A stretch of 64,000 nt of DNA from an uncultured Gammaproteobacteria bacterium. GTDB taxonomy: Bacteria > Pseudomonadota > Gammaproteobacteria > Chromatiales > Chromatiaceae. The notes beneath the pieces were generated by a model. It saw nothing but the letters and a program-made list of their open reading frames with translations, was not told the DNA's origin and did no database searches. Where the stretch lies: positions 85,789 through 149,788 of the forward strand of contig CAVORB010000020.1 in the NCBI GenBank assembly GCA_963698495.1, given 5' to 3'. This document shows positions 1 to 58,560 of the stretch, piece after piece (position 1 is the stretch's first letter; every line of letters starts with the position of its first letter). Made by a program: the position numbers and the translations under genes.

Positions 1-192
1 CAACTCCATTGGAGATCGCACACGGTAGCCCCGGCCGCGAACGGACTCGATTTCCAGGCCCAGTCCCTGCCCGGCCTTGTGGACGGCCTTCCACACCGCC
101 GCGCGGCTGATCCCGAGCGCGGCCGCCAGGTCCTCGCCGGAATGAAACTTCCCGTCGGCGAGCCTGCGCACGATCTTGAGCTGGGTTTCCAC
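1..192 (-). CDS. birA: Biotin ligase/repressor BirA, N-terminal HTH part (gene continues beyond window start)
   Basis: Minus-strand translation from GTG at 192: VETQLKIVRRLADGKFHSGEDLAAALGISRAAVWKAVHKAGQGLGLEIESVRGRGYRV. It matches the BirA N-terminal pattern L..LA.G.FHSGE.L...LG.SRAA..K....G...V.G.GY. It starts 23 nt downstream of the stop of the upstream peptidase gene. Confidence 0.65.
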   Translation of the reverse strand, partial: METQLKIVRRLADGKFHSGEDLAAALGISRAAVWKAVHKAGQGLGLEIESVRGRGYRVRSPMEL

Positions 193-214
193 GGAAGCGC
201 CCGGGCCCTCGACT

Positions 215-2035
215 TCAGACCGCCGAACCCAACCAGGCGGCGCGGCGGCGAGCCGCGTGGTCCGGGGCGTCGGCGAGGATGCTCAGCTCGCAGGTGTCGG
301 CGGGCGCGGGTTGGGGACGCGCGCGAAACTGCATCAGCTCGTCGCGCCGGAACGCATGGACCTCCGTCTCCGCTCCCTCCTCGACGCGGGCGACGAGCGT
401 GTCCAGATTGTCCCGGGTGACGCGGATACCATCGAGCGCCACCAGGGTGTCCCCGGCTGCCAGCCCGGCCTTTTCCGCGGGGCTCCCGCTCAGCACCACG
501 CCAATGACAGGCTCCACCCCGGTGGGCAGAAAGCGGACGCCAAGCGTCGGCTTCGCAGCTTCTGGTTTGAGCTCACCGACCACCCCGCCGAGATCCTTGG
601 GGTCCCGCATCGCGCGCATGCGCAACCCGACGCCGAATGGGGCAAGCAGCGGGGCCAGATCCAGGTCCACGGTCGAGTCCAGGGTCAGGGCGAAAAACCC
701 ATCCAGATCGAGCCCCGTCACCCGTGCCGCCAGAGCCTCCACGCCGCGCTCCGCAACTCCTAAGCCCGGCCGGCCGTGATGCTCCCACAGGGCGCGCATG
801 ACGTCATCCAGGGATTTGGCCCCTTCGGTCTGCAAACGGATCGTGAGGTCGAGCGCCAGGGCCACCAACGCCCCCTTGCCGTAATAGCTGACGATGGCGT
901 TCGGTGCGTTCTCGTCCTGCTTGTAGAACTTGGTCCAGGCATCGAAGCTGGACTCGGCGACCGTCTGGATCAGCCGGCCGGGATTGCGCATGACCCGCGT
1001 GACGGTCTGGGCAAGGAGCTCCAGGTAGCCTTGCTCGTCGATGCAGCCGCTGCGCACCAGGGCCAGCTCGTCGTAGTAGGAGGTGATGCCCTCGAACGCC
1101 CACAACAGCCGGGTGTGGACCTCATGCGCAAGGCCGTTGTCCATGAAGACCGCCGGACGGATGCGCTTGACGTTCCACAGGTGGAAATACTCGTGGCTGC
1201 AGAGCCCGAGGAAGCGCCGATAGCCGTCGCTCGGCCTGTCCATACCCGCCTCCGGCAGCTCGTTGCGGCTGCAGAGCAGGCTGGTGGAGTGGCCATGCTC
1301 TAGGCCGCCGTAGCCGTCGCCGGTGGCGGTGGTGAGGAAGAGGTACCGGTCGACGGGCAGCTCGCCGAACAGGCTGGCGTGAGTCTCGCAGATCCGGGCA
1401 AGGTCCTGCTGGAGCCGGGCCTCGTCTGCCCGGTGGCGTCCGGTGATGGCCATGCGGTGCGGCACGCCTCGCACCTCGAAGGGAATCAGGGTGAAGCGGC
1501 CCATCTCCACCGGATGGTCGATCAGGTCCTGGTAGTCATCGGCACGGTAGGCACCGAACCCCCAGGGCTCGGCATCCAGCCGCTGCAGGCTGGTGGCCAG
1601 CCGCCAGTCCGCGTAGGCATCGCCATCTGGCCGTTCGATCTCCACCCTGCAGGGCACGGCATCCATGCCGTCTATGCGCAGGAAGAGGCTGGGACCGTTG
1701 AAGTAGCCGTGGGTGGTATCCAGGTGCGCGGCGCGCACGCTCAGCTCCCAGGCGTAGATCCGGCAGCGGACCCTGATCGGCTGACCGCGATGGGCCAATC
1801 GCCAAGTGTGCTTGTCCAGCTTCGCCAGGGCCAGACTGCCCGCGGCATCCTGCGCCTCGATCGCGACGATGTTGCGGGCGAAATCCCGAATCATGTAGCT
1901 GCCCGGAATCCAGGCCGGCATGGACAGGATCATCTCCCCCTCGGGCGGGCGCGCGATGGAGAGATCCACGGTGAACAGGTGCGCCTCGGGAGAGGTCGGA
2001 CGGACGCGATAGGTCAGGTCATAGCTGGCGGTCAT
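215..2035 (-). CDS. M61 family glycyl aminopeptidase with C-terminal PDZ domain
   Basis: Intact 606-aa ORF with zinc motif HEYFHLWNVKRIRP (HExxH). The C-terminal PDZ-like segment reads GVVLSGSPAEKAGLAAGDTLVALDG. Confidence 0.85.
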   Translation of the reverse strand: MTASYDLTYRVRPTSPEAHLFTVDLSIARPPEGEMILSMPAWIPGSYMIRDFARNIVAIEAQDAAGSLALAKLDKHTWRLAHRGQPIRVRCRIYAWELSVRAAHLDTTHGYFNGPSLFLRIDGMDAVPCRVEIERPDGDAYADWRLATSLQRLDAEPWGFGAYRADDYQDLIDHPVEMGRFTLIPFEVRGVPHRMAITGRHRADEARLQQDLARICETHASLFGELPVDRYLFLTTATGDGYGGLEHGHSTSLLCSRNELPEAGMDRPSDGYRRFLGLCSHEYFHLWNVKRIRPAVFMDNGLAHEVHTRLLWAFEGITSYYDELALVRSGCIDEQGYLELLAQTVTRVMRNPGRLIQTVAESSFDAWTKFYKQDENAPNAIVSYYGKGALVALALDLTIRLQTEGAKSLDDVMRALWEHHGRPGLGVAERGVEALAARVTGLDLDGFFALTLDSTVDLDLAPLLAPFGVGLRMRAMRDPKDLGGVVGELKPEAAKPTLGVRFLPTGVEPVIGVVLSGSPAEKAGLAAGDTLVALDGIRVTRDNLDTLVARVEEGAETEVHAFRRDELMQFRARPQPAPADTCELSILADAPDHAARRRAAWLGSAV

Positions 2036-2175
2036 GTCGATGCGGCGAGTCGGTCCTGTCGGATAGGAGGCGGAAGGGGTGAAGGGACCCTTAACGGTAG
2101 CTTAGCGCGGCCCGATTGGCGAGAGTCTGGCGGCCCAAGGTTAGATGTCGGCACACGAGAACAAGAGGAGGCCTA

Positions 2176-2189
2176 TTGACAATTATCAA
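2176..2189 (+). promoter_or_regulatory. FNR/CRP-type box TTGAC-AATT-ATCAA upstream of the psrA-like gene
   Basis: Matches 9 of 10 positions of the FNR consensus TTGAT-N4-ATCAA. It lies ~150 nt upstream of the ATG at 2337 in the divergent intergenic region. Confidence 0.35.
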
Positions 2190-2336
2190 CGACTCTGGAC
2201 ACCCGAATGGGATATCGCTTTAGGCCGCAGAGTAGCTCTCTGCCCGCCCGAACGATGCTGTAACCAGGGCAACCGATTACAAGTAAGGTCCCGGTCGCCG
2301 TAACACCGGGGCAGCATCAACCACCGGAGGATCTCG

Positions 2337-5128
2337 ATGGCCTGGACCTTCCCACGCCTGTCTCGCCGTGCGTTTCTGAAAACCACCGGCTACGGCACCG
2401 CCTCCCTCGGTCTTCTCTACTCCAGCAGGCGGCATGATCGGCAAGGCCGTCGCCAAGGACGAGGAGCGCGAGGACGTCTCTTACAGCATCTGCAACTTCT
2501 GCTCGTCGCTGTGCAACCTGCGGGTCACCACCCGCACCAAGGACGGCGAGAAGCGCATCGTCAAGCTCGACGGCAACCCCAACTCGACGCTGAACCGCGG
2601 CAAGATCTGCGCCCGCGGCCAGGCGGGGCTGCGCCAGACCTACGATACCGACCGCATCAAGACGCCCCTGATCCGGGTGGAGGGCACGCAAGCGCGGCGA
2701 GTACGCCTTCCGCTCCGCCACCTGGGAGGAGGCCTAGGACTACATCGCCCGAAAGAGCAAGGCGGCCAAGATCAAGCCCTGGGAATGGACCATGGTGGGC
2801 GGCTGGACCTCCTGCGTCTTCTACATGAACTGGGCGGTGCCCTTCGCCATGGCCAACGAGGTGCCCAACATCGTCGCCTCGCCCATGCAGCACTGCGTGA
2901 CCACCGGCCACCTGGGCACCGACATGGTCACCGGCAATTTCAACATCCACGACGAGATCCTGCCGGACTTCGACAACGCCAAGTACATCCTGTTCGTGGC
3001 CAACAACGCCTCCATCGGCGCGGTGTCCACCTGCCGCATGGTGCGCTTCGCCCAGGGCCGCAAGAACGGCGCCAAGGTGGTGGCGCTCGACCCGCGCTGC
3101 TCCGAGACCGCCGCCAAGGCGGACGAATGGATGCAGATCCGCCCGGGCACCGACCTGGCCTTCATGCTCGCCATGATGAAGATCATGATGGACGAGGGCC
3201 TCTACGACGCCCAGTTCCTCAAGCGCCATACCAACATGCCCTTCCTGGTCCACAAGGACGACCAGGGCGAGTGGCAGCCGGTCACCGATCCCGAAGGCCG
3301 GCCGCTGGTGGTCGATGGAAGGCACCACCGAGGTTCACGTGCTGGAGAAATTCACCAACGACAACCTGCAACGGCATCGTGGCCGGGCGCGCCTTCTGCC
3401 CGGACTCAAGCGTGCCCGAGCCTCTCGAGGTCGAGGGCCGAGCGGTGCAAGACCGTGTTCGAGGCCCAGCTCGAGGAGCTCGCCGACGTACACGCCGGAG
3501 TGGGCGGCGGAGATCACCGGCGTGCCCGCCGAGACCATCGCCCGCATCTCCCGCGAGTTCGGCACCATCCGCCCGGCCATCGTGGATCCGGGCTGGCACG
3601 GGGCCCGCTACGGCAACGTCATGATGCTGCGCCGCGTGCAGGCCATGGTGCAGGCGCTGACCGGCGGCATCGACACGGAAGGCGGCTGGATGAACTGCGC
3701 GGCGAGCTGCATCACAAGGCCGCGCACATGTACAAGGCCGTACGACGAAGGGCACGAGATCGGCGCGCCCACTGGCCAACCTGGCCGGCATGCACTTCGC
3801 CAAGATGGTGATCAACGCGGTCTCCAAGGGCGAGAACTTCTCCCACGGCAGGCCGGCTGGACCTGGGCCTACAGCGCCCAGGAGAAGGAGGCCGGCCAGC
3901 TTCAACGTGGCGCTGCCGGTGATGACCGACGCGGGGATGCGGGAGTCGGTGGAGGGCAAGGTCCAGATTCGAAGGGCGAGCCCTACCTCACCCGCGCCTT
4001 CATCATCAACGCCGCGAACCCGGTGCGCCACTACTACCCGGACACCTACTGGAAGGAGATCCTGAGCCACGACAACGTGGACCTGGTGGTCATGGTGGAG
4101 GTGCTGCCGTCGGACACGGCGCCTTACGCCGACGTGATCCTGCCCAACACCACCTACCTGGAGCGCGACGAGCCCACGCTCTACGGCAATGGCGTCAACC
4201 AGGACCTGGCGCTGACCACCCGCTATGCCGCGATCGACTCCGCTGTACGACACCGAGGAGACGGCGGACATCCTGCTCAAGATGACGGAGATCATCAGCG
4301 GCAACACCGACAAGTTCCTGGAATGGGTCGAGAAGCTCACCGGGCTCAAGGCCGAGCCGGTCAAGGCGGCTTATGCGGAGACCCGAAAGACCCACGAAAA
4401 GGGGTCCTTCGCCGCCGCCTGCCGCGGGGTCTCCTTCGCCCAGACGGCCGAGCGCCTGGGGACCACGCCGGAGCATATCGACCAGGTCCTGCGCGAGAAG
4501 GGCGTCTATCACGAAGAGGACAAGCAGCGACATCCTCGAGCACCATGCCATGCCGCGCAAGATGCCGGTGCCGACCGACAGCGGGCGGGTGGAGTTCTTC
4601 AGCGGCCTGATGCGATCGCTGCGCGACAGCGGCCACACGGAGCCCAACTTCAGCGTGCTGGCGACCTGGATCGCCCCCGAATACCGGGAGGGCAAGGCCG
4701 TACGACCGAGCCCTTGGCGGAGGACGAGTTCTACTTCACCTACGGCAAGACGCCCACCGTCTCCCACGGCTCCACCAACAGCAACAATCCGGTGCTGGCG
4801 GCCATCAACCAGTTCAAGGACGACATCTACAAGGGGGTTTGGATCCACCCGGACCGGGCCGGCAGCTGGGCATCGGCCAAGGCGACCGGATCCGACGCTG
4901 ACCAACATCAAATCCGGCCAGGCGACGCACCGGCCGCGCCTACGTCACGCGACTGGTGCAGCGCGGACACCCTGTTCATCTACTCCTCCTTCGGGGTGGA
5001 GAACAAGGCGCTGTCCCGCACCCAGGGCGACGGCACCGCCACCAACAAGCTGATCCCCTATCAGGTCGAGCCCGTGGTGGCCGGATTCACGTTCCCAGGA
5101 ATTCACCATCAAGGTGGCCCGCGCCTAA
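2337..5128 (+). pseudogene. Tat-exported molybdopterin (bis-MGD) oxidoreductase catalytic subunit, PsrA/PhsA-like, disrupted by many frameshifts and a TAG
   Basis: Tat signal SRRAFLKTTGYGTASLG and FS0 cluster motif CNFCSSLC (CxxCxxxC). Long conserved-looking segments (e.g. MVGGWTSCVFYMNWAVPFAMANEVPNIVASP..., YTPEWAAEITGVPAETIARISREFG..., AFIINAANPVRHYYPDTYWKEILSHDNVDLVVMVEVLPSDTAPYADVILPNTTYLERDEP...) are spread over all three forward frames. I count about 18 frame switches. An in-frame TAG lies at 2735-2737. Confidence 0.85.
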
Positions 5129-5148
5129 GGTAAGAGGAGCATGAGCCC

Positions 5149-5769
5149 ATGACTAACTACGCAATGGTTATCGACCTCAACACCTGCGTCGGCTGCAACG
5201 CCTGCATGGCCGCCTGCGCGATGGAGAACCAGACCCCGGTGTGGGACAACAAGAAGTGGCGCACCTACGTACACGACAAGGAGATCGGCGTCGGGCGACG
5301 ACGTGCATCGCCGTTTCTTCCCGCGCCTGTGCAATCACTGCGACAACCCGCCCTGCATGAGCGTCTGTCCCACCGGCGCGACCTACAAGAAGGCCAACGG
5401 CATCGTCATGGTGGACGAGGACCTCTGCATGGGCTGCCGCGCCTGCGCCATGGCCTGCCCCTATGACGCCCGGGTGGAGGTGACCTACTGCGGACGTCAG
5501 AGCAGGGCAAGGAGTTCTTCGGCCGCGACTACCGCCGCACCAGCCCCAGCGTGGACAAGTGCACCTTCTGCGACCACCGGGTCGAGCAGGGCCTGAAGCC
5601 CGCCTGCGTGGAGACCTGCGTGGGCTCGTCGCGCATGTTCGGCGACCTGGACGATCCCGAGGACCCGGTCGCCCAGATGGTGGCCAGCGGGGTGGCCCGG
5701 CCGCTGATGCCGCATCTCGGCACCCGGCCCAACGTCTATTACATCGACGACCTGAAGCGGAGGGGCTGA
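5149..5769 (+). pseudogene. 4Fe-4S ferredoxin-type electron-transfer subunit (PsrB/DmsB-like), frameshifted
   Basis: SD AAGAGGAG then ATG. Cys clusters [37 protein letters not shown] and CTFCDHR...CVETC sit in three segments: frame 1, then 2 (about 5290), then 1 (about 5490). Confidence 0.85.
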
Positions 5770-5783
5770 GATGGACGTCAACC

Positions 5784-6737
5784 ATGACCTACTCGACCCA
5801 GGACCTCTGGACCTGGTGGCTCGCCATCTACCTCTACACCGGCGGGCTCGGCGCCGCGACCCTGGCGGTCACCTTCCTCACCGACATGTACCTCAAGCCG
5901 CATCCGCAACCTGGTGCTCTGGGGCGCGGGCGCCGGCGTCGTCCTGCTGTCGCCTCGGCTCGCTCATGCTGTTCGGGCATCTGCTCGATCACTTCGCGGT
6001 GATTCACGTGCTGAACCCGCTGGCCATGTTCACCCAGCCGACCGCATGGATCGCCTGGGGCACCCAGTTCATCCTCTGGATGATGGTGTGGGGGGTGCTC
6101 TACGCCCTGCCCTACGCCTGCGTGACGCCCCTGTTCCAAAAGCTCCCGCTGGTCAGCAGCATCCTGGGCTCGGGCCACCTGGTGAAGCTCTGCGCAGCTG
6201 ATCGAGCGATACCGCAGAGGTCATCGGCTGGCTCGCGGTGGTCAACGGCGTCGGCGTCGCCGTCTACACCGGCCTGCTGCTGCAGTCCTTCCCCGCCGTG
6301 GCCCTGTGGGCGAATCCGGGCGTGCCTCTGCTGTTCACGGTGTCGGCCTTCTCCACCGCCATGGCGTTCCTGCTGTTGCTCATGTACACCTGTCATCAAG
6401 GACGCGGCGGACGAGCACATCCGCGGTGCTCTACGAGCGCATCGACCTGGTGCTGATCTCCGCCGAGCTGGTGATCATCTTCTCCTTCTTCTTCTACCTG
6501 CAGCGTGGGTCGGAGTCCGCCATGCGCTCCTGGGAGCTGCTGTTCACCGACCTCGGCTGGCTGATCGGCTTCATCGGCTTCGGCCTCGTCGTGCCCTTCT
6601 TCCTGGAGCTCAAGGGCGTGATCAAGGGCTGGACAAGCCACGCACCGATCATTGCCGCGTCGGTCTTCGTGCTGACCGGCGGCTATCTGCTGCGGCACTA
6701 CTTCATGTACGCGGGGGTTTACGCCTACCCCTGGTAG
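5784..6737 (+). pseudogene. NrfD/PsrC-type integral membrane quinol-interacting subunit, frameshifted
   Basis: Hydrophobic NrfD-like segments lie in different frames: MTYSTQDLWTWWLAIYLYTGGLGAATLAV, AWGTQFILWMMVWGVLYALPY, VVNGVGVAVYTGLLLQSFPAVALWANPGVPLLF, LLRHYFMYAGVYAYPW. At least 4 switches. Confidence 0.8.
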
Positions 6738-7058
6738 AGGCCGAACAGAACAACGAGAGCGAGGAGGCGGCGACGAAGGAGAGGCGCGCGAGCGTCTCTC
6801 CTTCTCTGACAACGCCTCAGGCCGGAGGCGCAGCATCGGCCCGGCATTTCCCCGCCCGGCGCGAGCCCGGCTTCCGCTCGTCAACTCTGGCTGCCCAGCG
6901 CATCGATCGGCGAAGTGCACCTGCATCGTCGCCCCCCGTCGGGTCCGCGTCCGGCTCGAAAGCGGTTCCGCGGCTCCGGTCGTCAATCGTGCCGTTCATC
7001 GACGCCCATACCAAGACCAGGCCGCGACCCTTGTCCCGGTCCGGCACCAATCCATATC

Positions 7059-7204
7059 TCCTGCCAATTTGACAGTTATTGCACGCCGACATAAGAGTCG
7101 GATTATTAACTGAATGATGGCGCTCATGCCCGATCACTCTTCCGCGCTAATGTCATATTGGCATGAATTCGATCACCGAATAACGCATTCCTGCCAATTT
7201 GGCA
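7059..7204. promoter_or_regulatory. AT-rich intergenic region with repeated TGCCAAT motifs (candidate operator) upstream of the second operon
   Basis: 16-mer TCCTGCCAATTTGrCA occurs at 7059-7074 and 7189-7204. An inverted core ATTGGCA lies at 7157-7163. A palindrome TTGCA-N5-TGCAA lies at 7228-7242. Confidence 0.25.
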
Positions 7205-7485
7205 TCAGAACGATTGAGCCTAAGTGTTTGCAAAACATGCAAAATTAGTTGACCCAGGACAATGAACACCGGCGGTCCAGGGTGATGTAATGATCCCCGG
7301 CCGCCGGACTCGGGCCGGCTCCAAATAGCCCGGAAACAGAGAATCATAAATCGGGCTTTATTCACCTTGCTTTCGCAGGAACCTGCTCGCGACGGCGCGT
7401 CTTACCCCGCCAGAGAAAGCGTATCGCCCGCCAAGCCAGGTGCGCATCGCATCGACCACAGACCCACCAAAAAGAGGATCGTCAG

Positions 7486-7824
7486 ATGTTGACAAGAATG
7501 CGGGCCGTTTTCGGCAAGCGGTTCTCCCTCCGACGAAAGGCCGGCGAGCGCCAGCCCCCATCGGCGCAGGCGGTTTCTCAGGCAAGGCGGGGATTCTTCA
7601 CGAAGGCCGCGGTCGGGGCGGTTTCGCTCTCCGGAACCGCCGGTCTGGCCAAGGTCGTCGTGGACTCGGTTCCCGAACCCGGATCTGCAAGCGACCTCTA
7701 CCGAGAAGGACCATCTCGCCGGCGAACAGGAGCTGACCGAGCGGGAGTATGTCCTGATGTCCTACAAGCGAAAAGGAGGACATGGTGCAGCAGCTCGTCG
7801 ACAGCTACTCACGAGAAGGGCTGA
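7486..7824 (+). pseudogene. Small Tat-signal protein, first gene of the second operon, apparently frameshifted
   Basis: Twin-arginine motif SQARRGFFTKAAVGAVSLSG. The plausible continuation [22 protein letters not shown] lies in another frame after about 7710. Confidence 0.4.
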
Positions 7825-7974
7825 AAGGCGCCGAGCGTCCTCGGATCCGGGTCCGCTGCGCGGGCGCACGACACTGGATGCGCGGCCATCGGGTTGGCGC
7901 CGTCCAATCCTGCCCCAGCCGTCGATCACCCGCTGCCAGTTTTCTCGATCGATCAATGGATCTAGGGGTCATCC

Positions 7975-9011
7975 ATGCCAAACGAAGACACCAAAGCAAA
8001 GAGGTACCACCGGCACGACCAGCCGCGACTTTCTGCGCAAGGCGGGCACCTATAGCGTGGCCTCGCTCGTCGGGGGCGAGCGATGCTGATGTCGGTCCCG
8101 AAGCAGGCCAAGGCGACGGCGAACGTCACCTGGGCCGAGGAGTTCCAGAAAAACTACCGTCTCATGACCGACGAGGAGAAGCAGGAGGCTATCGAGCGGC
8201 TGGAGAAGCGCTACTCGGAGGAATTCGGGAAGAAGGTCACGGTCGACGGCTCGCCGGCGATCGACGGCGTCCTGTTCGGCTACGCGCTCAACATCCAGAA
8301 ATGCATCGGCTGCCGGCGCTGCGTCAAGGCCTGCGTCGCCGAGAACAATCAGTCCCGCGGCGAGAAGCAGCAGATCGAATGGATTCGTGTACTGCGCATG
8401 GAAAAGGGTCAGTTCTCGGAAGAGGACAGGGACAACAACGGTTATCCGCGAGGACTACGGCGTACAGGTCGGCGGCAACTCCTACAAGCCCGCCGGCGTC
8501 GTCCTCGAGGGTCAGCATTACTACGAGGCCGGACAAGGTCCCGGAGAAGGACGCCTTCTATTTCCCGATGCAGTGCATGCAGTGCGAAAAGCCGCCCTGC
8601 GTCAAGGTCTGCCCGGTCCGCACGACCTACCGCGATCCGGACGGGATCGTCGTCATCGATTACAACTGGTGCATCGGCTGCCGCATGTGCATCGGCGCCT
8701 GCCCCTACTGGGCACGACGCTTCAACTGGGGCGAGCCGGATCTCCCGCGGAGGAGATGAATCCGCAACACCCACTACCTGGGCAACCGCCCGCGCATGAA
8801 GGGGGTGGTCGAGAAGTGCACCTTCTGCATCCAGCGCACCAGAAAGGGCCGCTGGACCGGCTGCGTCGAGGTCTGTCCGGTCGGGGCGCGAAAGCTGGGC
8901 AACCTGCTGGACCCGGACAGCGACATCCGCAAGGTGCTGGCGACCAAGAAGGTCTTCCGTCTGCGCGCGGACCTGAATACCTATCCGAAGTTCTTCTACT
9001 TCATGGACTAA
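7975..9011 (+). pseudogene. Tat-exported 4Fe-4S subunit (NrfC/DmsB family), frameshifted
   Basis: Tat motif [17 protein letters not shown]. Clusters [37 protein letters not shown] and CTFCIQR...CVEVCP are distributed over at least 5 frame segments. Confidence 0.8.
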
Positions 9012-9023
9012 GGGGAAGCATCC

Positions 9024-10285
9024 GTGAAACGCTTTATCCAATTTGTCATCGATTTCCTGCGCGCCGGTTTCACCGGAGGCGCCCTGTTCTGGGCCTGGAT
9101 GCTGTTCCTGTCCTTCTTCATCATGCTCTGGGGCTATGGCGAGTACGTGCAGATCCGTGACGGCATGATCGTCACCAACCTCAACGATCAGGTCAGTTGG
9201 GGCATGTATCTGGCCAGCTTCGTGTTCATGGTCGGCGTGGCCGCGGCGGCGGTGACCGTCGTGTTTCCCGGCCTATGTCTACAAGCACAAGGAGTTGCAT
9301 CAGATCGTCGTGCTCGGCGAGATGCTGGCCATCGCCGCGGTGATCATGTGCCTGCTCTTCGTTATCGCCCACATGGGCCGACCGGACCGGCTCTGGCACA
9401 TCTTTCCGGTCATCGGGATCTACAACTGGCCCCATTCGGTGCTGACCTGGGATGTGCTGGTCCTCAGCGGTTATCTGCTGCTCAACGTCGTCGGGGGCTT
9501 CTACTACCTGTACAAGAAATACTCCGACGAGCCGGTGAACAAGGCGTTCTATCTGCCGATCGTCTACATCGCGATCGTCTGGGCCCTGAGCATCCACACG
9601 GTCACGGCCTTCCTGATCAACACCATGCCGGCCAGGCCCATGTGGTTCCACTCGATGATGCCGATCAAGTTCATCACGACCGCCTTCGCGGCCGGTCCCT
9701 CGCTGATCATCATCGTGTTCCTGCTGGTTCGCCGCTTCACGCCGTTGAAGATCGCGGACGAGGCCTTCCACATGCTGTCCCAGATCGTCACCTGGTGCCT
9801 CGGCATCGCGCTGTTTCTCACCATGTCGGAGATCGTCACCGAGCTCTATCCCGAGCACCGAGCATTCGATGGGGCTGCAATACCTGATGTTCGGTCATCA
9901 TGGGCTCAACGCGTTGGTGCCCTTCTTCTGGACCGCCATGGCGTTGATGATCGGCTCCTTCATCTTGCTGCTGATACCCAAGGTCAGAAAGAACCTCGTG
10001 ATTCTGCCCTTCATCTGCATCGGCTACCTTCGTGGGGATCTGGATCGAGAAGGGGCTGGGCCTGATGCTCCCGGGCGTCATCCCGACTCCCGTCGGCGAG
10101 TTCGCCGAATACACGCCCGAGCGCGATCGAGCTCATGATCATCATCGGGGTCTGGGCGATCGGGTTCTTCGTGCTGACCGTGCTTGATAAAGGGCGCGGT
10201 CGGCGTCCTGCTCGGCGACGTTCGCTACCAGGAAAAGGTAGACGCCCGTACCCAAGGCGAGCAGGCCAGCGTGACGGCTGCTTGA
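9024..10285 (+). pseudogene. Large NrfD-family membrane subunit (ActC/DsrP/HmcC-like), frameshifted
   Basis: Hydrophobic segments lie in different frames: MKRFIQFVIDFLRAGFTGGALFWAWMLF..., HQIVVLGEMLAIAAVIMCLLFVIAHMGRPDRLWHIFP..., GLQYLMFGHHGLNALVPFFWTAM..., ELMIIIGVWAIGFFVLTVL. The reconstructed stop is at 10283-10285. Confidence 0.8.
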
Positions 10286-10361
10286 GCGTGGCCATTGTGG
10301 ACCGATCTCGGCGACGGCACCGCGCCGCGGTGACTCCAACGAATTCGGGAGACGAAAGACG

Positions 10362-11190
10362 ATGACTAGCTATCGAGTGTTCAAGGACCGGTGACGGGCC
10401 TGTGTCTACTGGCGGTGGCGTCCTATGGCCCGGTCCAAGGCGGCAACGGCCGAAGCCGGCGAAGAGTGCTTCGAGAGCCGGGAAGGACTGGACTCAGGTG
10501 CAGCAGCGAGAGATCGAGCCCGGCGTGATCGAACGTGAAGTGCTCGCCGACCACCGGCGGCGTCCTGCTTTGGGGCGATCCCTTCGACGGGACCATCCCC
10601 ATGGGCGACATGCCGGTCGAGGCGGACTACTCCCACGAGGAGGCGGTGGTGAAGCCCCGCGAGCCGCAGCTCGACCGCAACAAGCTGCTGACCATCTGCT
10701 CCATGGCCTGCCACAACGGCGAGTACGTTCCATATCCGGAGAACAAGTTGCCTCGCCCGCTCGAAGATGCATCAGGACGTGGTTCCGGATTCCATGAACC
10801 TGAAGCATGGCAAGGGGGCGATCTGGTGCCTGGACTGCCATCATCGCGGCGGAGCGTACCAAGCTGATGGACCATTTCGGCAACGAGATCAGCTTCAACC
10901 AACCCCAGAACGATGTGCGGCAAATGCCACGGCGACGTCTATCCGGGGCTGGCGCGATGGTATCCACGGCAAGCGCATCGGTATGTGGGCAAGCGGGCGG
11001 AAAGAAGCGCTGGTGGGTCTGCACCGAGTGCCACAATCCCCACGACGTGGAGCAAGGCGAGCGGCATTCCGGATTCGCGCAGCTTCATCCCGAGCCCGCG
11101 CCGATGCTGCCGAAGGGCATGACCAACGCCGATCACGAACGCGTCCACGGCCACGGCCAATCCCATGGCGGGGATGCGCACCAATGGACG
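10362..11190 (+). pseudogene. Tetraheme c-type cytochrome, frameshifted (boundaries approximate)
   Basis: Four CxxCH motifs: CSMACH 10697-10714 (frame 2), CLDCH 10827-10841 (frame 0), CGKCH 10916-10930 (frame 2), CTECH 11020-11034 (frame 1). Confidence 0.7.
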
Positions 11191-11943
11191 AGCTCTGTGC
11201 AGGTCGACAAAGGAAGATGCCCGGCGCGAGGAGCATTCGAGACCATCTGGGAAAACGTCAGATCAATGCGGTGTTTGCGGATGTCGCCGCCGCCTACGAC
11301 ACGGCAAACGACTTCGCCAGCCTGGGGGTATTGAAGGGGCTACGCCGCCGCTTCATCGCGACCATCGATGTCGAGCCTGGCCAACGAGTCCTCGACGTCT
11401 GCGCCGGGACGAATGTCGTCGGCATTGAGCTGCTGAAGAAGCAGCCCGGACTCAAGGTGTACGCGGTGGACCGCAGCGACGCCATGCAGAGAGTCGGCAA
11501 GGACCGGGCCTCGCGGCAGGGCTTCGAGATCAAGGGACACATCTGCGACGTGCACCGAGCTGCCGTTCCCGGACAACCACTTCGACGTCGTGACCCTGCA
11601 GTACGCCACGCGGCACCTGCGTGTCATCGACGTCTTCTCGGAGATCAATCGCGTTCTCAAGCCCGGCGGCCACTTCCACCATTTCGATATGCTGCGCCCG
11701 GCGAACAAGCTCATCGAGAACGCCTACTGTCTCTACCTGAAGGCTTGCCTCAAGGTGATCTCCTGGGGTATCCGCTCCGGGCCCGAGGCGTTGGCCTGCC
11801 GCGACTACTTCGTAGACGCCATCCGTCTTTTTTACTCTACGGAGGAGCTTTCCCGCCTGCTCCAAGAGCTCGGTTTCGCGGATGTCATGGGTCGGCCGTT
11901 GCTCGGCGGCACGGTTGCCATCCACAAGGCGTGCAAGGTGTAG
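11184..11943 (+). pseudogene. UbiE/COQ5-like class I SAM-dependent methyltransferase with one frameshift near 11556
   Basis: N-terminal part VFADVAAAYDTANDFASLGVLKGLRR...VLDVCAGTN (SAM motif I) is in one frame. ELPFPDNHFDVVTLQYATRHL...LKPGGHFHHFD continues in the ORF 11590-11943 frame. Confidence 0.75.
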
Positions 11944-12029
11944 TCGGGCTTCGGCCGGGTCGGCTGCGCCCGGAGACTGATCCGCGGGAAATCAACCTTC
12001 ACCCGGCTCTACCAGGGGGAGTACAAACA

Positions 12030-12356
12030 ATGACGACTCACAAGATACTGATCACGGCTGCCGGCATGATCGGCGCCACATGGCTGTCCGGTCCGGTGCA
12101 AGCCCTCGATGCAGCGAGCCTCTATATCGAGCGGACCTGCATCGCCTGCCATGGTCCCGAAGGCCGGGTGCCTGCCATGGACGAGTATCCCAAGCTTGCG
12201 GGACAGGGAACGGACTACCTGTTGGCCCAAATGAAGGACATCAGGAGCGGCGTGCGCAGCAATGCGCACTCGGTGGCGATGAAGAACGTGATGCACCTGT
12301 CCAGCGACGAGGAGTTGGCCGCAATCGCGGCATGGCTCGCAGCTCTGCCCGAATAG
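12030..12356 (+). CDS. Monoheme class I cytochrome c (c-552/c4-half-like), signal peptide
   Basis: Intact ORF with heme motif CIACHG and YPKLAGQGTDYLLAQMKDIRSG. It is a paralogue of 13411-13743. Confidence 0.85.
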   Translation: MTTHKILITAAGMIGATWLSGPVQALDAASLYIERTCIACHGPEGRVPAMDEYPKLAGQGTDYLLAQMKDIRSGVRSNAHSVAMKNVMHLSSDEELAAIAAWLAALPE

Positions 12357-12413
12357 GCGTTGCGCGCGGTGGTGGTCGCGGCGGGGTGGACCTTCGGGAC
12401 TTTCGGCCGATGC

Positions 12414-12872
12414 TCAGCCGCGCCAGACGGAGTCGGTCAAGTCGGCGATCTGCGCGTAGTAAGCGTCCCGGTCCAGGCCGAGCACACCTGAACCGAAGAG
12501 CTCCGCATCCGCCGCGGTTGCGATATCGCCGTAGTTGATCAATACGGACTGGTACAGGATCAGCGCCGGCAGCGCCTCGGGCCGGTCCTTGAAGTGTAGA
12601 TGCAGCGAGATGACGTATCCGTCCGCCGGGTCGTCGGAATTGGCTTCGGTCTTGGCGAACAGGCCAGGCTCGATGCCTTCCGATACGAACCTGATCTCGA
12701 CCGGATACCGGATGCATCGTCTGTCCTCGAGGATGCGCAGCACGGTGGGAAAGTCGATGACGGGACCGTACCGGGCGCGGATGTCCGCGGCCTTCTCGAT
12801 CGCATGTTTGGACACGGCGCTGTGGATGACCTTTCCAACGCGCTTCTTAGGCTTTGTTGGTGTTTGTTCCAT
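12414..12872 (-). CDS. Hypothetical protein (basic N-terminus)
   Basis: Open frame with coding-like composition and no family recognised. Start chosen at ATG MEQTPTKPKK; the longer ORF extends to 12935. Confidence 0.45.
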   Translation of the reverse strand: MEQTPTKPKKRVGKVIHSAVSKHAIEKAADIRARYGPVIDFPTVLRILEDRRCIRYPVEIRFVSEGIEPGLFAKTEANSDDPADGYVISLHLHFKDRPEALPALILYQSVLINYGDIATAADAELFGSGVLGLDRDAYYAQIADLTDSVWRG

Positions 12873-13001
12873 TGCATTGACGCCTATTGTCTGTACGCGG
12901 GCTTGCGGATTCGGATTCTGTGGGGGCCAGCTCAAATGCAGACGGCTGCATCATAACCGACTTCGACCCGAAGTCCGGATCGTGTCCGGCAGAGGATCTC
13001 C

Positions 13002-13373
13002 ATGCCCGATTACCAACTGAAGTTCTCCGAGGATGAAGATGCGGAAGCCCGCCAGCGCACCCTCGATGAGCTCCGCGCTTTCGTCGCCGCGATGGATGGC
13101 CGCCCCCTCGCGATCGTTACGCTGAACGCGGAGCAGAGCCAACTGTGGGATCAGGAGGGCGACGTCGATTACCAGGACGCATACGGGCGGCAGATCGTAG
13201 AACAGGTCTCCGACGGCGAGACCGAGACCCTGGTCATCCGCAATTGCGACGGGTTCCCGGTGGCGCTGGCGGCAACGGAAGCCGGCGCCGGCTGGCAGGG
13301 CATCGGCGTCGACAGGCGGCTGCGTTTCGAGATTGCAGCCATGCTGCAGAACGACGAGACCGAGCTTGAATAG
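13002..13373 (+). CDS. Hypothetical acidic protein
   Basis: 123-aa ORF with SD AGAGGA and ATG. Very acidic; no family recognised. Confidence 0.5.
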   Translation: MPDYQLKFSEDEDAEARQRTLDELRAFVAAMDGRPLAIVTLNAEQSQLWDQEGDVDYQDAYGRQIVEQVSDGETETLVIRNCDGFPVALAATEAGAGWQGIGVDRRLRFEIAAMLQNDETELE

Positions 13374-13410
13374 CGCAACCCAACGAACCAAGATCCGGGA
13401 GACCACCGAG

Positions 13411-13743
13411 ATGAACGAACCGAGATTGTCCGCGCTTCTGATTTGCACTCTCCTCACCGCCGGAGGCGCCTCGGCCGCTTCCGCCCAGGACGCCGCGCCG
13501 GATGGAGCGCAGCTCTACCAGACCAAGGCCTGCATGTCGTGCCACGGCCCAGACGGCCGCACGCCGATACTGCCGATCTATCCCAAGATCGCCGGACAGA
13601 AGGCGGGCTACCTCTACAATCAGATGCGCGACATCAAAAGCGGCGCCCGTAACAACGGCCAATCGATCGTCATGCTCGGCATCATGGCCGGCGTCAACGA
13701 GGACGAGATGCAGGCGCTCGCCGATTGGCTCGCCTCACAATAA
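13411..13743 (+). CDS. Monoheme class I cytochrome c, signal peptide
   Basis: MNEPRLSALLICTLLTAGGASAASA signal, heme motif CMSCHG and YPKIAGQKAGYLYNQMRDIKSG. Confidence 0.85.
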   Translation: MNEPRLSALLICTLLTAGGASAASAQDAAPDGAQLYQTKACMSCHGPDGRTPILPIYPKIAGQKAGYLYNQMRDIKSGARNNGQSIVMLGIMAGVNEDEMQALADWLASQ

Positions 13744-13892
13744 CGTTTGCGACGCAGTGGACGAGCCATCTGCAGCGGCGCGAGCTTTGAGTCAGGGGCC
13801 ACTTTCCAGACTTCGCCCCGGCGCCGGGACCAGGACACGAGCCGATCCAACCGCCGGCGTCAGCGCGCCTTCCTGAAGCGAGCCGGAGCCTG

Positions 13893-14447
13893 ATGACGCG
13901 GCACACAATAGCGAAGCGGGCATCCCCGGACCGGGAATCAGAGCAACTGCGAATCCTTGCCGCACTGCTCGCCCACCCCGCGGAGGACGCCCTCGACGCC
14001 CTGCGCGACCTGCTCCCGCGGGCGCCATGGCTCGCGGAGTGCATTGTGGAGCTCGAGGGGCTCACGCTCGAGCGCTGGCAGGGGGAGCACACGCGTCTGT
14101 TCATCAATGGGTGGCCCGCAACCGCGTGCCCGCCCTTCGAGTCCGCCTACCGCCAGGGGCAGATGGGCGGCACGAGCGCGGCGGCGTTGGCGAGCCTCTA
14201 CCGCCGCGCCGGGCTCCAGGCAAACGAAGCGCCGCCGGACTATCTCGGAACCATGTTGGAGTGCGCCGCATGGCTCGCCGAGCAGGAGGACAGCGGGGGC
14301 TTGCTCAGGGAGCTCGAAGACGACCATCTCAGCCGCTGGGTGCCTCGCTTCGCCCGTGATCTCCGGGACCGCAGCGAGCTGCTGCTCTACCGCGCCCTGG
14401 GCGGGCAGATCGCACGCAGCTTCCCCGGGACCGAGGGTCATGACTGA
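13893..14447 (+). CDS. TorD/DmsD/NarJ-family redox-enzyme maturation chaperone
   Basis: Intact 184-aa ORF with SD GGAG. Family-typical HTRLFINGWPATACPPFESAY and DYLGTMLECAAWL. Confidence 0.75.
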   Translation: MTRHTIAKRASPDRESEQLRILAALLAHPAEDALDALRDLLPRAPWLAECIVELEGLTLERWQGEHTRLFINGWPATACPPFESAYRQGQMGGTSAAALASLYRRAGLQANEAPPDYLGTMLECAAWLAEQEDSGGLLRELEDDHLSRWVPRFARDLRDRSELLLYRALGGQIARSFPGTEGHD

Positions 14448-15003
14448 CCGCGACTGGAGGATCTGTCCCCCGGCGCTCGCCGACGACGAGGCCCTGGGTC
14501 GCGCCGTCGTCGGGACACACCGGGCCGTCCTGCGCGACCAGCTGTCGGGCGACCCCATGTTGAACGCGGCGCTCGGCGTCCAGCTCCGGGCACTGCGCAG
14601 GATCGAGGGCTGGCGGGTGCTGCTGCTGCTCACCCCCTGGATGCTCGCCCGCCTGCTGTTTCCGGACGATAGGCCGCCGCTGGAGATTCCACGTGGCTGG
14701 TCCGCCAACGAGCGCCAGGGTAGCGACTACCTGGTGCTCGGCCCGCGTCTGGACTTCGTGCTGCTCGGACAGCCGCAGCAGGCACATCTGAACTACGACC
14801 CTGCCCTCGGGCACTATTTGGTACAGCCGATCTGCCTCGATCTGGCGCCCTACCGGGATGCGGCGGCCGTTTTCGAGGCATGGAATCAGGTCATCCGCAC
14901 CCGCGACGAAAACATGGAGAAGGCCAAGCGCGATTGCCCGCTGCAGAAGGAGATCTCCCGGCGCGAGCTGTTCCGCCGCATCAAGCCACCCAACAGCACC
15001 TGA
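14440..15003 (+). CDS. HybE-like [NiFe]-hydrogenase-type Tat proofreading/assembly chaperone
   Basis: The ATG overlaps the upstream stop by 8 nt. WRVLLLLTPWMLARLLFP and GHYLVQPICLDL parallel E. coli HybE WTGCVITPWMLSAVIFPG and SQYLSCSLMSPL. Confidence 0.65.
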   Translation: MTDRDWRICPPALADDEALGRAVVGTHRAVLRDQLSGDPMLNAALGVQLRALRRIEGWRVLLLLTPWMLARLLFPDDRPPLEIPRGWSANERQGSDYLVLGPRLDFVLLGQPQQAHLNYDPALGHYLVQPICLDLAPYRDAAAVFEAWNQVIRTRDENMEKAKRDCPLQKEISRRELFRRIKPPNST

Positions 15004-15063
15004 AACCGGTCGCGGCGAGGTCTCGCTTGAGCGTGCGGGACACCAGTTCAACGCGCGTAGGTT

Positions 15064-15594
15064 ATGCTTCAATCATCCACTCGCATTGCTCGAGAGACCG
15101 TGATCCCTCGCGCTGGAGGTCTTCCCGCCGTGACAACCAAACCCATCTCTATCGCCATGCTGCTCGCGTTCGCCATTCCCGCCGCGTGGGGCTCGCCCGA
15201 TTGGGGCTACCCGCAAGGGCCCAGCTACTTTCACTCCTACCAGTACACGATGCCTCTCTACGGGCCACCCGCGGCTTATGCCGGCCAACCCAGTCAACAA
15301 CAATCCGCCGGAGGAGCCTGGTCCTACGGCGTCAACAGCCGCGAGGTGCCGGGCGGCTACCTGATCGAGCTTGCGCTCCGCGGGATCGCGCCCAGCGAGA
15401 TCCGGATGCATGTCCGAGACGGCGCGCTGGTGTTCGAACGCAGCCAGACCTCCGGTGGCTCGGGACAGGGTAGCTTCAGCTTCGGAAGCTTCTTCTGGAC
15501 CCTGCCCCTCCCCGCGGATGCGGACGTTTCCCGAGCGGAAGGCCGCGCGGACCAGAACGGCATTCAACTGTTCATCCCGAAGAAGGGAAGCTGA
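15064..15594 (+). CDS. Exported protein with Tyr/Pro/Gly-rich N-region and C-terminal Hsp20/alpha-crystallin-like domain
   Basis: Signal-like KPISIAMLLAFAIPAAWG. ACD-like GGYLIELALRGIAPSEIRMHVRDGALVFE...LPLPADADVSRAEGRADQNGIQLFIPKK. The true start may be GTG about 15130. Confidence 0.55.
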   Translation: MLQSSTRIARETVIPRAGGLPAVTTKPISIAMLLAFAIPAAWGSPDWGYPQGPSYFHSYQYTMPLYGPPAAYAGQPSQQQSAGGAWSYGVNSREVPGGYLIELALRGIAPSEIRMHVRDGALVFERSQTSGGSGQGSFSFGSFFWTLPLPADADVSRAEGRADQNGIQLFIPKKGS

Positions 15595-15642
15595 CCCCAA
15601 ACGAGGCGCCGGAAGACCCGGTTCGCCGCCGGTCTCGGAGCA

Positions 15643-17874
15643 ATGAGTCGCGTCGAGTACCCCGGATCGAGCCAGGGCGCGCACGCGGAGCGCCTCTCGG
15701 GTTCGATCGAGCGGGTCACCTTCCACAGCCCGGAGAGCGGCTTCTGCGTGCTGCGCGTGAAGGTGCGCGGCCAGCGCGACCTGGTGACCGTGGTCGGCTC
15801 AGCGGCCAGCGTGACCGCCGGCGAATACGTCGACTGTGACGGCTCATGGGTGAATGACCGGCAGCATGGGCTGCAATTCAAGGCCCTGGCCCTGCGCGTC
15901 GTCCCCCCCAGCACCCTGGAGGGAATCGAGAAGTACCTGGGCTCGGGCATGGTCAAGGGCATCGGCCCCCACTTCGCCCGCAAGCTGGTGCGCGCCTTCG
16001 GCGAGCGGGTCTTCGACGTCATCGAGGACCATCCGGACCGCCTGCAGGAGCTCGACGGCATCGGACCCAAGCGCAGGGACCGGGTGACCAAGGCGTGGGC
16101 GGAGCAGAAGGTGATCCGCGAGATCATGGTCTTCCTGCAGTCCCACGGCGTCGGCACCGCCCGCGCCGTGCGCATCTTCAAGACCTATGGCGACGCGGCG
16201 ATCGAGAAGGTGCGGGAGAACCCCTACCGGCTCGCCCTGGACATCCACGGAATCGGCTTCAAGACCGCGGACGCCATTGCGCAGAGGCTCGGCATCCCGC
16301 GGGACTCCCTGATCCGGGCTCGCGCCGGGGTGCGCCATGCGCTGCAGGAGATCGCCGGCGACGGGCACTGCGCGGCTCACCGCGAGAATCTGGTCGAGAC
16401 GGCGATCAAGCTGCTCGCGATCCCGCGGCCCGTGATCGAGCAGGCGGTGGCGGGTGAGCTCACGGAGGAGACCCTGGTCGAGGAAGAGATCGATGGCGTC
16501 CCCGCCCTGCTACTGACCCCATTGCAGCGGGCGGAGCGGGGCGTGGCCCTGAGCATTGCCCGCCTGCAGCGGAGCCCGCCGAACTGGGGTCACATCGAAG
16601 CGGACGCCGCGCTCGCCTGGGTCGAGGGGGCGTCCGGACTCGAGCTATCCGGCTCCCAGCGCGCGGCGGTGACGAGCGCCGTCAACGCCAAGGTGACCCT
16701 GATGACCGGCGGTCCCGGCGTGGGCAAGACGACGGTCGTCAACAGCATCCTGCGCATCCTGCGCGCGAAAGGGGCTTCGGTGCTCCTGTGCGCGCCGACC
16801 GGGCGCGCCGCCAAGCGATTGTCCGAGTCCACCGGGGTGGAGGCCAAGACGGTACACCGTCTGCTGGAATTCGATCCCCAGATCATGGGCTTCAAGCGGG
16901 ACCAGTACTCACCCCTCGACGCGGACCTGGTGGTGGTGGACGAGGTCTCCATGGTCGACGTCGCCCTGATGAACCAGCTCCTGCGGGCGGTCCCCGACCA
17001 TGCGGCCATCCTGCTGGTTGGGGACGTGGACCAGCTACCCTCGGTGGGACCCGGTGCCGTGCTGAAGGACCTGATCGACTCCGGAATGGTACCCACGGTG
17101 CGTCTGACCGAGATCTTCCGCCAGGCGGCCAGCTCGCGGATCATCGTCAACGCGCACCGGATCAATCGGGGCTTGATGCCCGAGCGTCCAACCGGACAGG
17201 ATTCCGAGAGCGACTTCTACCTGATCCCGTGCGACACGCCGGCGCTGATCCATGAGCGCCTGATAACGGTCGTCACCGAACGCATTCCCCGGCGCTTCGG
17301 GCTCGACCCGATCAACGACATCCAGGTATTGACCCCAATGAATCGAGGCGGACTCGGGGCCCGTTCCCTGAACATCGAGCTGCAGGAACGGCTCAATCCG
17401 GACGGCCAGCCGCGCATCACACGCTTCGGCTGGACCTACGCCCCGCGGGACAAGGTGATGCAGACCGTCAACAATTACGACAAGGAGGTCTTCAACGGCG
17501 ACATCGGCCGCATCGCCCGCATCGAAGAGGAGGAGGGGCTGGTCGTCGTCGACTACGACGGCCGTCAGGTCGAGTACGAGACCGGCGAGCTGGACGAGCT
17601 CTCCCTCGCCTACGCCACGACGATCCACAAGAGCCAGGGATCCGAGTATCCTGCGGTGGTGATCCCGCTCTCGACGCAGCACTACACGCTATTGGAGCGC
17701 AACCTGCTGTACACGGCCGTAACCAGGGGCCGAAGACTGGTCGTTCTCGCCGCCGAGAACAGGGCCCTGGGGATGGCGGTGAAACGCACGGGATCGGTGC
17801 GCCGACTGACCAGACTGCGTCAGCGTGTTCAGGAGGCCTTCGAGGAGCAGATACGCGAGGCGCCGAAGCCTTGA
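15643..17874 (+). CDS. recD2: RecD2-type SF1B ATP-dependent DNA helicase
   Basis: Intact 743-aa ORF with Walker [34 protein letters not shown] and C-terminal [13 protein letters not shown]. Confidence 0.9.
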
Positions 17875-17943
17875 CGTAGGATTCGGTGCCGTATCCACGC
17901 GACCTGAAGCCAGACCGCAAAAAGACGCTGATTTACGGCCGTC

Positions 17944-18067
17944 CTGGCCAAAATCAGCACGCCAGCCAAGAAGCGTGGTTCTTGGATCGCTTCGTTTTCG
18001 AACGCTTGCGCGCCTGAACATGGCGTCACATCCCTGTGCCGCCGCAAGCGCTGAATCGATCAGCGCT
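17944..18067. repeat. Dispersed intergenic repeat, copy A (core 124 nt; weaker similarity spans 17918-18082)
   Basis: About 90% identical, without gaps, to 58561-58684. Ends in hairpin AGCGCTGA-ATCGA-TCAGCGCT (18047-18067). Confidence 0.85.
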
Positions 18068-18069
18068 GC

Positions 18070-18828
18070 CTAACGCCCATCCCGGGAAAAACGAACCTTC
18101 CGGGACACCGCATAGATCGCCTTGAAAAACAGCGCCGCAGCGGTAAACAGTAGGGCCACACTGATAATGACCGCGATGATGATGATCGCCTTCCCCTCTC
18201 TTTCTCCAATGCTCGCCAGGGCGTCTCGCGTGACGTTTTCGGATTGAAACAGGAACTCCTCCAGCCTTTGATTGAATTCGTCTTCCCGCTCCTCTATTTC
18301 CGCGACCAGCCTTTCGGCTTCGCTGGATTTTCCGGCCGCGAACAAATCAAACAGATTATCGGCACGCGTAACGTATATGGCATACTCCTCCTGTATCGAG
18401 CTGAGGGATCTTTCAATGTCAGCAAGTGCAGCTGCCAGGTGCTCATCAGAAGCCCGCTGGCGGGCTTCGACGCTCATGCTCGATGCGCCCTTGATTTCTG
18501 CATTTACCTTGACGGCGATATCCTTGAATCTGGTTCTCGCCTCGTTCAGAAGCCTCAGATTATTTTTATCGTCCTGTTGCCCACGCGCAGCGATCTCTGC
18601 ATAGCGCAAGCCCCGTTCGAACCAGTACGTCTGCTCCAATTTGTGCACGGTGATCCGGGTTATCATTTCCGTGATCGGGATCTCCTGCTCGACGACCTCT
18701 TTGAGCTCATCATTGAGTTGAAAAAGGAAATAGATACTCGCTATGCCTGATCCCAGCAAAACAAAAAACAATACCCCGGTCAGCCAAAATACGTTTTCTT
18801 TGTGTTTGGCCGTCTTGGATTGAGTCAT
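18070..18828 (-). CDS. Two-TM membrane protein with periplasmic helical-bundle (MCP-sensor-like) region and no output domain
   Basis: 252-aa ORF from ATG MTQSKTAKHK. N-terminal TM VFWLTGVLFFVLLGSGIASIYFLF and C-terminal TM AIIIIAVIISVALLFTAAALFF. GC is clearly below the window average. Confidence 0.55.
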   Translation of the reverse strand: MTQSKTAKHKENVFWLTGVLFFVLLGSGIASIYFLFQLNDELKEVVEQEIPITEMITRITVHKLEQTYWFERGLRYAEIAARGQQDDKNNLRLLNEARTRFKDIAVKVNAEIKGASSMSVEARQRASDEHLAAALADIERSLSSIQEEYAIYVTRADNLFDLFAAGKSSEAERLVAEIEEREDEFNQRLEEFLFQSENVTRDALASIGEREGKAIIIIAVIISVALLFTAAALFFKAIYAVSRKVRFSRDGR

Positions 18829-19889: not shown

Positions 19890-20030
19890 CTTCAGGCAGC
19901 CGGTACAGTCAACAGGTCAAGGGACAGCATCCACACTCGCGCGGCTTCGGGCACAGCGTCCCTCTCAACACTGCCCGGGGCTACGGTCACGGAGGCCGGA
20001 ACCTCTGCCTACCTCGCGGAGGGATCGGCC

Positions 20031-58524: not shown

Positions 58525-58560
58525 GCCCCTCTCTTACAAAGACGGTGATCATTGGCCATT

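Follow-up and report, generated by a model that had tools for sequence, protein, structure and literature searches.

Two adjacent respiratory operons in an uncultured member of the Chromatiaceae can only be read by hopping between frames, which raises the question of whether their genes are dead or whether the record of them is wrong. The operons occupy positions 2337–11943 of a 64,000-nucleotide (nt) stretch of contig CAVORB010000020.1 (assembly GCA_963698495.1; GC content ~66%), and it is this whole stretch that we call the window. An initial reading of the letters alone (the sequence-only reading) had offered two explanations: a genuinely dead but undeleted island, or a locally poor consensus in which low coverage or a sub-population allele played a part. 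From the analysis that follows, we find that the block of frameshifts does exist in the sequence record, yet very probably not in the organism itself. The frameshifts are with high probability long-read consensus errors that arose from the merging of mixed haplotypes, rather than mutations. The second of the two explanations is therefore retained and sharpened to two merged haplotypes, while the dead island is opposed by intact sister genes, by the spectrum of insertions and deletions (indels), and by the ratio of nonsynonymous to synonymous divergence (dN/dS).

The extent of the damage was established by comparison with relatives. A genome scan returned 80 related loci, and lesions were called from MAFFT alignments of the window with up to ten relatives, counting window-specific events. 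We resolve 60 insertions, 29 in the first operon (psrABC) and 31 in the second, of which 57 shift the frame. Most are single bases (47), followed by eight of 2 nt, two of 3 nt, and one each of 5, 6, and 7 nt, for a sum of 87 nt. These compare with three 1-nt deletions (3854, 4862, and 8743) and none longer than 1 nt, an insertion-to-deletion ratio of 20:1. There is one nonsense codon, a TAG at 2735–2737 in the psrA-like gene; it stands in place of a conserved Trp codon (TGG in the relative L004) and is the only stop-creating substitution in the block. The first lesion lies at 2419 and the last at 11559 (forward strand), with an error density of ~0.7% and all eight genes hit. None of the eight retains a continuous open reading frame (ORF), a frame plot of GC content at third codon positions jumps between frames, and a codon-usage hidden Markov model (HMM) places 28 same-strand frame switches within 2300–11950 versus 15 in the other 54 kb. 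The claim that all eight genes are frame-broken thus emerges stronger than it was made, with about 63 lesions overall where ~40 had been traced and 21 in the catalytic subunit where ~18 had been traced, whereas the mixture of +1 and −1 shifts that had been described is not what we observe, as the lesions are almost all insertions.

The boundaries of the damage are sharp. In the flanks at 1–2158 and 13925–20400, of which 8.7 kb are directly comparable, there are zero window-specific indels relative to the relatives L003, L004, and L083, as expected from the earlier description of intact flanks. Two parts between these flanks are also free of lesions, namely the poorly conserved spacer at 6740–7480 and the stretch from 11560 to 13924. 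Outside the block, every HMM switch that was examined falls at an ordinary boundary between genes or is spurious, for example in an intact CN-hydrolase gene and at the separate TorD-like and HybE-like genes, and the background of about one lesion per 10 kb proposed from the sequence was not reproduced. The only remaining candidate lies near 30.0 kb on the reverse strand (29088–30576), where two long ORFs (29088–30233 and 29839–30576) overlap by ~400 nt with an HMM frame switch near 30019. Neither ORF has a Pfam match, and the overlap could be the sole frameshift outside the block.

The most telling property of the insertions is the identity of the inserted base. In psrABC, 20 of the 24 single-base insertions carry the alternative allele of a neighbouring alignment column, versus 5.9 ± 2.1 at random, and 0 of 5000 simulations reached 20. 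The second operon, for which an independent set of relatives was used, behaves likewise (11 of 17 allele-matched versus 4.0 ± 1.7; 0 of 3000 simulations reached 11). If each insertion is kept in place and its base alone is drawn at random, 17.5 matches are expected across both operons, versus 31 of 42 observed (P = 4.6e-6). These allele-matching tests rule out random insertions as the source. Several of the longer insertions read as two variants of one short stretch in tandem. At 10380, the window has TT+CA, with TT found in L088, L090, L092, and L093 and AA in L003 and L089; at 11230, it has GG+AG, with GG in three relatives and AG in L003; and at 11142, the two halves of CGTCCA+CGGCCA are variants of a single hexamer and resemble different groups of relatives. 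The insertions also avoid homopolymers: homopolymer-type events are depleted in both operons (3 versus 12.1 expected in psrABC and 3 versus 8.4 in the second), and only 6 of 41 single-base insertions duplicate a neighbour versus ~20 expected, which bears out the remark in the sequence-only reading that several junctions lie outside homopolymer runs. No shared motif is found at the 52 insertion sites with at least three relatives aligned; no position there carries more than 0.28 bit of information, and only the inserted base and the one after it surpass the 95th percentile of randomly drawn site sets.

The region is also heterogeneous in the population. The whole damaged block, together with a clean right end of 2.3 kb, forms an 11.7 kb strain-variable island (2159–13924) that is wholly missing from the conspecific L083 (GCA_942492265.1). 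That genome has an identical RecD2 and 98.5–98.9% identity in both flanks, and it joins window position 2158 to 13925 with 45 bp between. A short repeat, GGCACAC, is found at both edges of the island (2150–2158 and 13908–13916) and suggests that the island was lost or gained by an event between short direct repeats. In L004, psrABC is present but 6862–13928 is missing, the second operon included. Because the island is absent from a conspecific, reads that bear it would come from a sub-population. The clean right part (12030–13743) encodes a class I cytochrome c (12030–12356), a 123-amino acid (aa) ORF (13002–13373), and a second cytochrome c (13411–13743), with only two indels relative to L003. 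Identity to the relatives is 80–89% in the operons versus ~73% in this right end, a value close to that of the chromosomal genes nearby.

The same observations bear on a simpler technical explanation, in which one or a few noisy reads of ~9 kb set the consensus at low coverage and no second haplotype was involved. A block of ~9.1 kb is about the length of a typical read, its error density fits a poorly polished consensus, the cells that carry the island are a sub-population, and nanopore bins of low coverage are known to keep indels that break up gene calls and to need polishing (PMC9262707). Random errors would not match the alleles of relatives, however, and would not be expected to leave tandem allele pairs. 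Long-read indels cluster in homopolymers, yet it is precisely the homopolymer-type insertions that are depleted here, and both the right-hand 2.3 kb and the spacer at 6740–7480 are clean though their coverage should be equal. Plain low-coverage error is thus a very improbable account of the block.

Intact versions of the broken genes are readily found. L003, a nanopore-style metagenome-assembled genome (MAG), is syntenic with the window over 1–13361, and both it and L004, a SPAdes-style MAG, share ~91% nucleotide identity with the window. Their orthologues are intact, with psrA products of 924 and 922 aa, respectively, psrB of 205 aa, and psrC of 319 aa, and dozens of intact psrA orthologues appear in the genome scan. 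All 60 insertions are specific to the window; the comparison with sister genomes that the sequence-only reading had proposed thus yields no lesion in common. Independent support comes from a 2946 bp Logan contig of run ERR12037370, which encodes two proteins identical to those of the window (the cytochrome c at 12030–12356 and the 123-aa ORF at 13002–13373). Gene coordinates and spacing match the window exactly, including the 86-nt spacer between the UbiE-like gene and the cytochrome c gene, and the UbiE-like gene is intact at 747 nt (248 aa), which equals the 760 nt of the window minus 13 inserted nt. The Logan UbiE protein was not recovered in a second homology search, and a metagenome scan with an intact 183-aa DsrP-like stretch as query returned no contig of the same population, the best match having 93% aa identity. 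Searches for a same-strain assembly gave no record for the M61 peptidase or the TorD-like protein of the window, and RecD2 led to L083. The notion that psrA is broken in many genomes was discarded, as the word-indexed search behind it had given only short or partial proteins that trace to contig ends or to an error-prone long-read contig. A tblastn search with the proteins of the relative L001 as reference was likewise set aside as too coarse, L001 itself being frameshifted.

If the block were a genuine pseudogene region, in which operons no longer needed had accumulated real frameshifts and had not yet been deleted, selection should have left a different trace. We compared substitutions and proteins after removing the inserted columns, with L004 as the reference. 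The frame-corrected PsrA, PsrB, and PsrC align end to end at 91%, 94%, and 97% identity, and dN/dS is 0.17, 0.09, and 0.06, respectively, versus 0.16 for both flanking genes, while dS (0.28, 0.41, and 0.26) is the same as between L003 and L004 and thus not raised. The sequence-only reading had named continuous frames in sister genomes as the mark of an assembly artefact and a frame-corrected dN/dS far below 1 as speaking against long-standing decay; the sister genomes have continuous frames, and dN/dS is 0.06–0.17. Furthermore, 79% of the window-specific substitutions are already seen in other relatives, compared to 63–64% of those specific to L003 or L004, a degree of allele sharing that random decay would not be expected to produce.

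The indel spectrum points in the same direction. Bacterial pseudogenes have a deletion-biased indel spectrum, the opposite of 60 insertions to three deletions with none longer than 1 nt. The indels are also about as numerous as the excess substitutions, unlike a natural mutation spectrum, and their bases match neighbouring alternative alleles. Decay would also have had to spare the intergenic spacer and the right end of the island, leave no lesion common to the sister genomes, and coexist with an intact UbiE-like gene in an independent contig with identical neighbours. Set against this, all eight genes are damaged, the island is dispensable (L083 lacks it, and L004 lacks the second operon), dN in the window lineage is 2–4 times that of L003, and the TAG at 2735 looks real. 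On balance, we consider a true pseudogene block improbable.

Consensus error from mixed haplotypes would account for these features together. During consensus building or polishing, one backbone would have collected reads from two or more diverged versions of the gene cluster, the second version coming from another strain in the sample, a related species there, or a paralogue at another place in the genome. At sites of difference between the versions, both alleles would often have been kept side by side, such that a single-nucleotide polymorphism becomes a 1-nt insertion and a multi-base difference becomes a tandem near-duplicate of 2–7 nt. At other sites, the minority (foreign) allele would have replaced the true base, giving rise to the excess of apparently nonsynonymous differences. 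The lesions would spare the spacer at 6740–7480 and the region beyond the UbiE-like gene because foreign reads would align only to the conserved operons. We infer from the comparative data that the pattern arose from mixed reads at some particular step of consensus formation: the inserted bases match alternative alleles at adjacent sites, and both L083 and L004 show the region to be heterogeneous in the population. In the organism, the genes themselves are most likely intact and would encode a Tat-exported Psr/Phs-like molybdoenzyme (subunits A, B, and C) and a module of iron–sulfur (FeS) protein, NrfD-type protein, multihaem cytochrome, and UbiE-like methyltransferase.

Several observations weigh against merged haplotypes. 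Nonsynonymous change in the window lineage, as noted above, is 2–4 times that of L003, and at codon positions 1+2 of psrA there are 64 changes in the window versus 20–23 in the sisters. The TAG at 2735–2737 is not directly explained by the retention of both alleles, and selection may truly have been relaxed to some extent, given this codon, the raised dN, and the fact that the island is dispensable. Among the 42 single-base insertions, 11 match no known allele, and local variability is only weakly correlated with insertion density (rho 0.39, p 0.07, in operon 1). The Logan contig spans only 5 of the 60 insertions, was compared through its proteins and gene coordinates, and may derive from another strain. 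None of ten frame-corrected UbiE candidates had a match in an exact look-up, a result that is uninformative because there are several ways to resolve the 7-nt insertion near the N-terminus. Finally, we know of no documented consensus tool that yields exactly this both-alleles pattern.

Two further explanations take the insertions to be physically present in the DNA. In the first, repeated abortive recombination or repair with a diverged homologous copy left the alleles of both parents side by side at mismatches and is rapidly inactivating a dispensable island. If this were true, tandem-allele insertions would represent an undescribed mutational process, and we give it only a slim chance. In the second, real insertions are tolerated by recoding, be it programmed +1/+2 ribosomal frameshifting, transcriptional slippage, or RNA editing, such that the operons are still expressed. 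The well-conserved peptide segments between lesions and the low dN/dS would be in keeping with expression, but insertions of 1, 2, 3, 5, 6, and 7 nt go beyond what one mechanism would handle, and we know of no precedent in bacteria for recoding at such density. Because the insertion sites share no motif, the insertion lengths are mixed, and the orthologues are unshifted and without insertions, programmed frameshifting is ruled out, and the chance of any recoding is close to nil.

With merged haplotypes as the preferred explanation, the operons can be described from their frame-corrected genes and intact orthologues, and the family-level identities assigned from the sequence prove correct for both. 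The first begins with a psrA/phsA-like catalytic subunit (2337–5128, forward strand, ending at 5128 rather than at 5133 as first placed) of the molybdenum bis(pyranopterin guanine dinucleotide) (Mo-bisPGD) type. PF04879 and PF00384 are matched by its fragments and by the intact 922–924 aa orthologues, and the N-terminus carries a twin-arginine translocation (Tat) signal with the motif RRAFLK. Its lesions comprise 19 insertions, two deletions (3854 and 4862), and the TAG, and the stretch 3300–4000 alone holds 11 lesions. It is followed on the same strand by a psrB-like four-cluster FeS subunit (5149–5769; PF13247), with three insertions (5293, 5490, and 5502), and by a psrC/NrfD-type membrane anchor (5771–6737; PF03916), with seven. 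Both the order of these three genes and their domains are those of PsrABC/PhsABC-type complex iron–sulfur molybdoenzymes (CISM). The catalytic subunit does not reach the equivalog cut-off of any named enzyme, the best being PhsA with 268.7 bits versus a cut-off of 694, and the psrB-like subunit gives a borderline match to the NCBIfam DsrO model (202 versus a cut-off of 200). Operon 1 is thus predicted to encode a Psr/Phs-like CISM at the family level only.

The second operon, also on the forward strand, starts with a small protein bearing a twin-arginine motif (7486–7824), with insertions at 7687 (3 nt), 7704, 7763, and 7810; its L003 orthologue is intact at 110 aa, and profile searches gave no family match. 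Next are a Tat-signal 4Fe–4S protein related to DsrO, QrcC, and HybA (7975–9011), with six insertions within 8001–8764 and the deletion at 8743, and a DsrP-like membrane protein of the NrfD family (9024–10285; PF03916), with insertions at 9849, 10020, 10115, and 10182 and a further one directly upstream of the gene at 9022. The L003 orthologue of the former matches PF13247 and scores under the cut-off for NCBIfam DsrO, and that of the latter scores 270 bits against NCBIfam DsrP versus a cut-off of 350. A multihaem c-type cytochrome gene (10400–11187, start approximate) has about eight insertions, including the 6-nt event at 11142, and its L003 orthologue matches Cytochrome_C7. The haem motifs had been described as four CxxCH in frames 2, 0, 2, and 1; they do fall in different frames, three in number, but comprise three CxxCH and one CxxxCH. 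The last gene encodes a UbiE/MenG-like S-adenosylmethionine-dependent methyltransferase (11184–11943; PF01209), with five insertions totalling 13 nt (11186, 11201 of 7 nt, 11230 and 11257 of 2 nt each, and 11559). Once frame-corrected, its product is 248 aa in length and 96% identical to that of L003. The combination at 7486–11943 of a twin-arginine small protein, DsrO-like and DsrP-like proteins, a multihaem cytochrome, and a UbiE/MenG-like quinone methyltransferase is unusual. Relatives of operon 2 are found at no fewer than 323 loci in the metagenome scan, and L003 alone among the closest Chromatiaceae genomes has it adjoining psrABC.

The relatives are themselves of interest with regard to record quality. 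Operon 2 of L003 contains four private 1-nt insertions (window-equivalent positions 8876, 9303, 9995, and 11091), two of which are of the both-alleles type; they lie within 14685–19100 of L003 and fuse or split the FeS, NrfD, and cytochrome/UbiE ORFs. In L001, the psrA and psrC genes are split (10001–14186). The cluster seems to be prone to consensus errors in metagenomes, with these two independent long-read MAGs showing milder damage there than the window.

Two observations concern the window beyond the operons. At 14427, a T of L004 is missing from both the window and L083, near the junction of the TorD-like (13893–14447) and HybE-like (~14437–15003) genes; it alters only the last few C-terminal residues and the gene overlap, and as it is common to two assemblies, the difference is probably real. 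A 147-bp direct repeat, 88% identical and non-coding, occurs at 17921–18067 and 58538–58684, 40 kb apart, and is kept in L083 and L004. Rfam and tRNA scans of the window, this repeat included, gave no match, and the 147-bp sequence may represent an intergenic repeat element or a small RNA not yet annotated.

Two working respiratory operons are very probable, and annotating them as pseudogenes would understate the anaerobic or sulfur metabolism of this organism. The biological value of this finding is small, and its practical value as an artefact diagnostic is greater. It provides a fingerprint that requires no reads to tell such artefacts from real decay, namely insertions only, located off homopolymers, with the inserted base equal to a neighbouring alternative allele, in conserved genes of a strain-variable island. 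Pseudogene counts and “decaying islands” from long-read metagenome bins should be screened with such a test.

When compared to known systems, operon 1 resembles PsrABC/PhsABC-type CISM in both gene order and domains, and differs from curated enzymes such as PhsA in that the scores of the window and its orthologues fall under the equivalog cut-offs (269 versus 694 for PhsA), except for the borderline DsrO match of the psrB-like subunit. Operon 2 resembles the FeS and NrfD modules of the DsrOP/HybAB type and includes a multihaem cytochrome, whereas the classical systems have no terminal UbiE-like methyltransferase. As in real pseudogene regions under relaxed selection, such as those of Mycobacterium leprae and recently host-restricted symbionts, many frameshifts are seen in functionally connected genes that a sister strain can do without. 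Real decay, however, brings a deletion bias, larger deletions, a rising dN/dS, and lesions shared within a lineage, none of which is seen in the block. In collapsed assemblies, consensus and polishing errors arise at heterozygous or strain-variable sites where two templates differ. The region is likewise strain-variable, and the both-alleles-in-tandem outcome is one that we infer here from comparative data only. Finally, indel-broken ORFs are a problem of long-read assemblies that is addressed by IDEEL scoring and proovframe (PMC9262707; bioRxiv 10.1101/2021.08.23.457338). The block shares with such long-read genomes and metagenomes the fragmentation by 1–2 nt indels of genes that are full-length in close relatives, its origin in a long contig (0.2–1 Mb) from an uncultured source, and the similar damage seen in L001 and L003. 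Typical long-read errors are linked to homopolymers, often deletions, and spread contig-wide, whereas those of the window are insertions off homopolymers that lie within 9.1 kb and carry alternative alleles.

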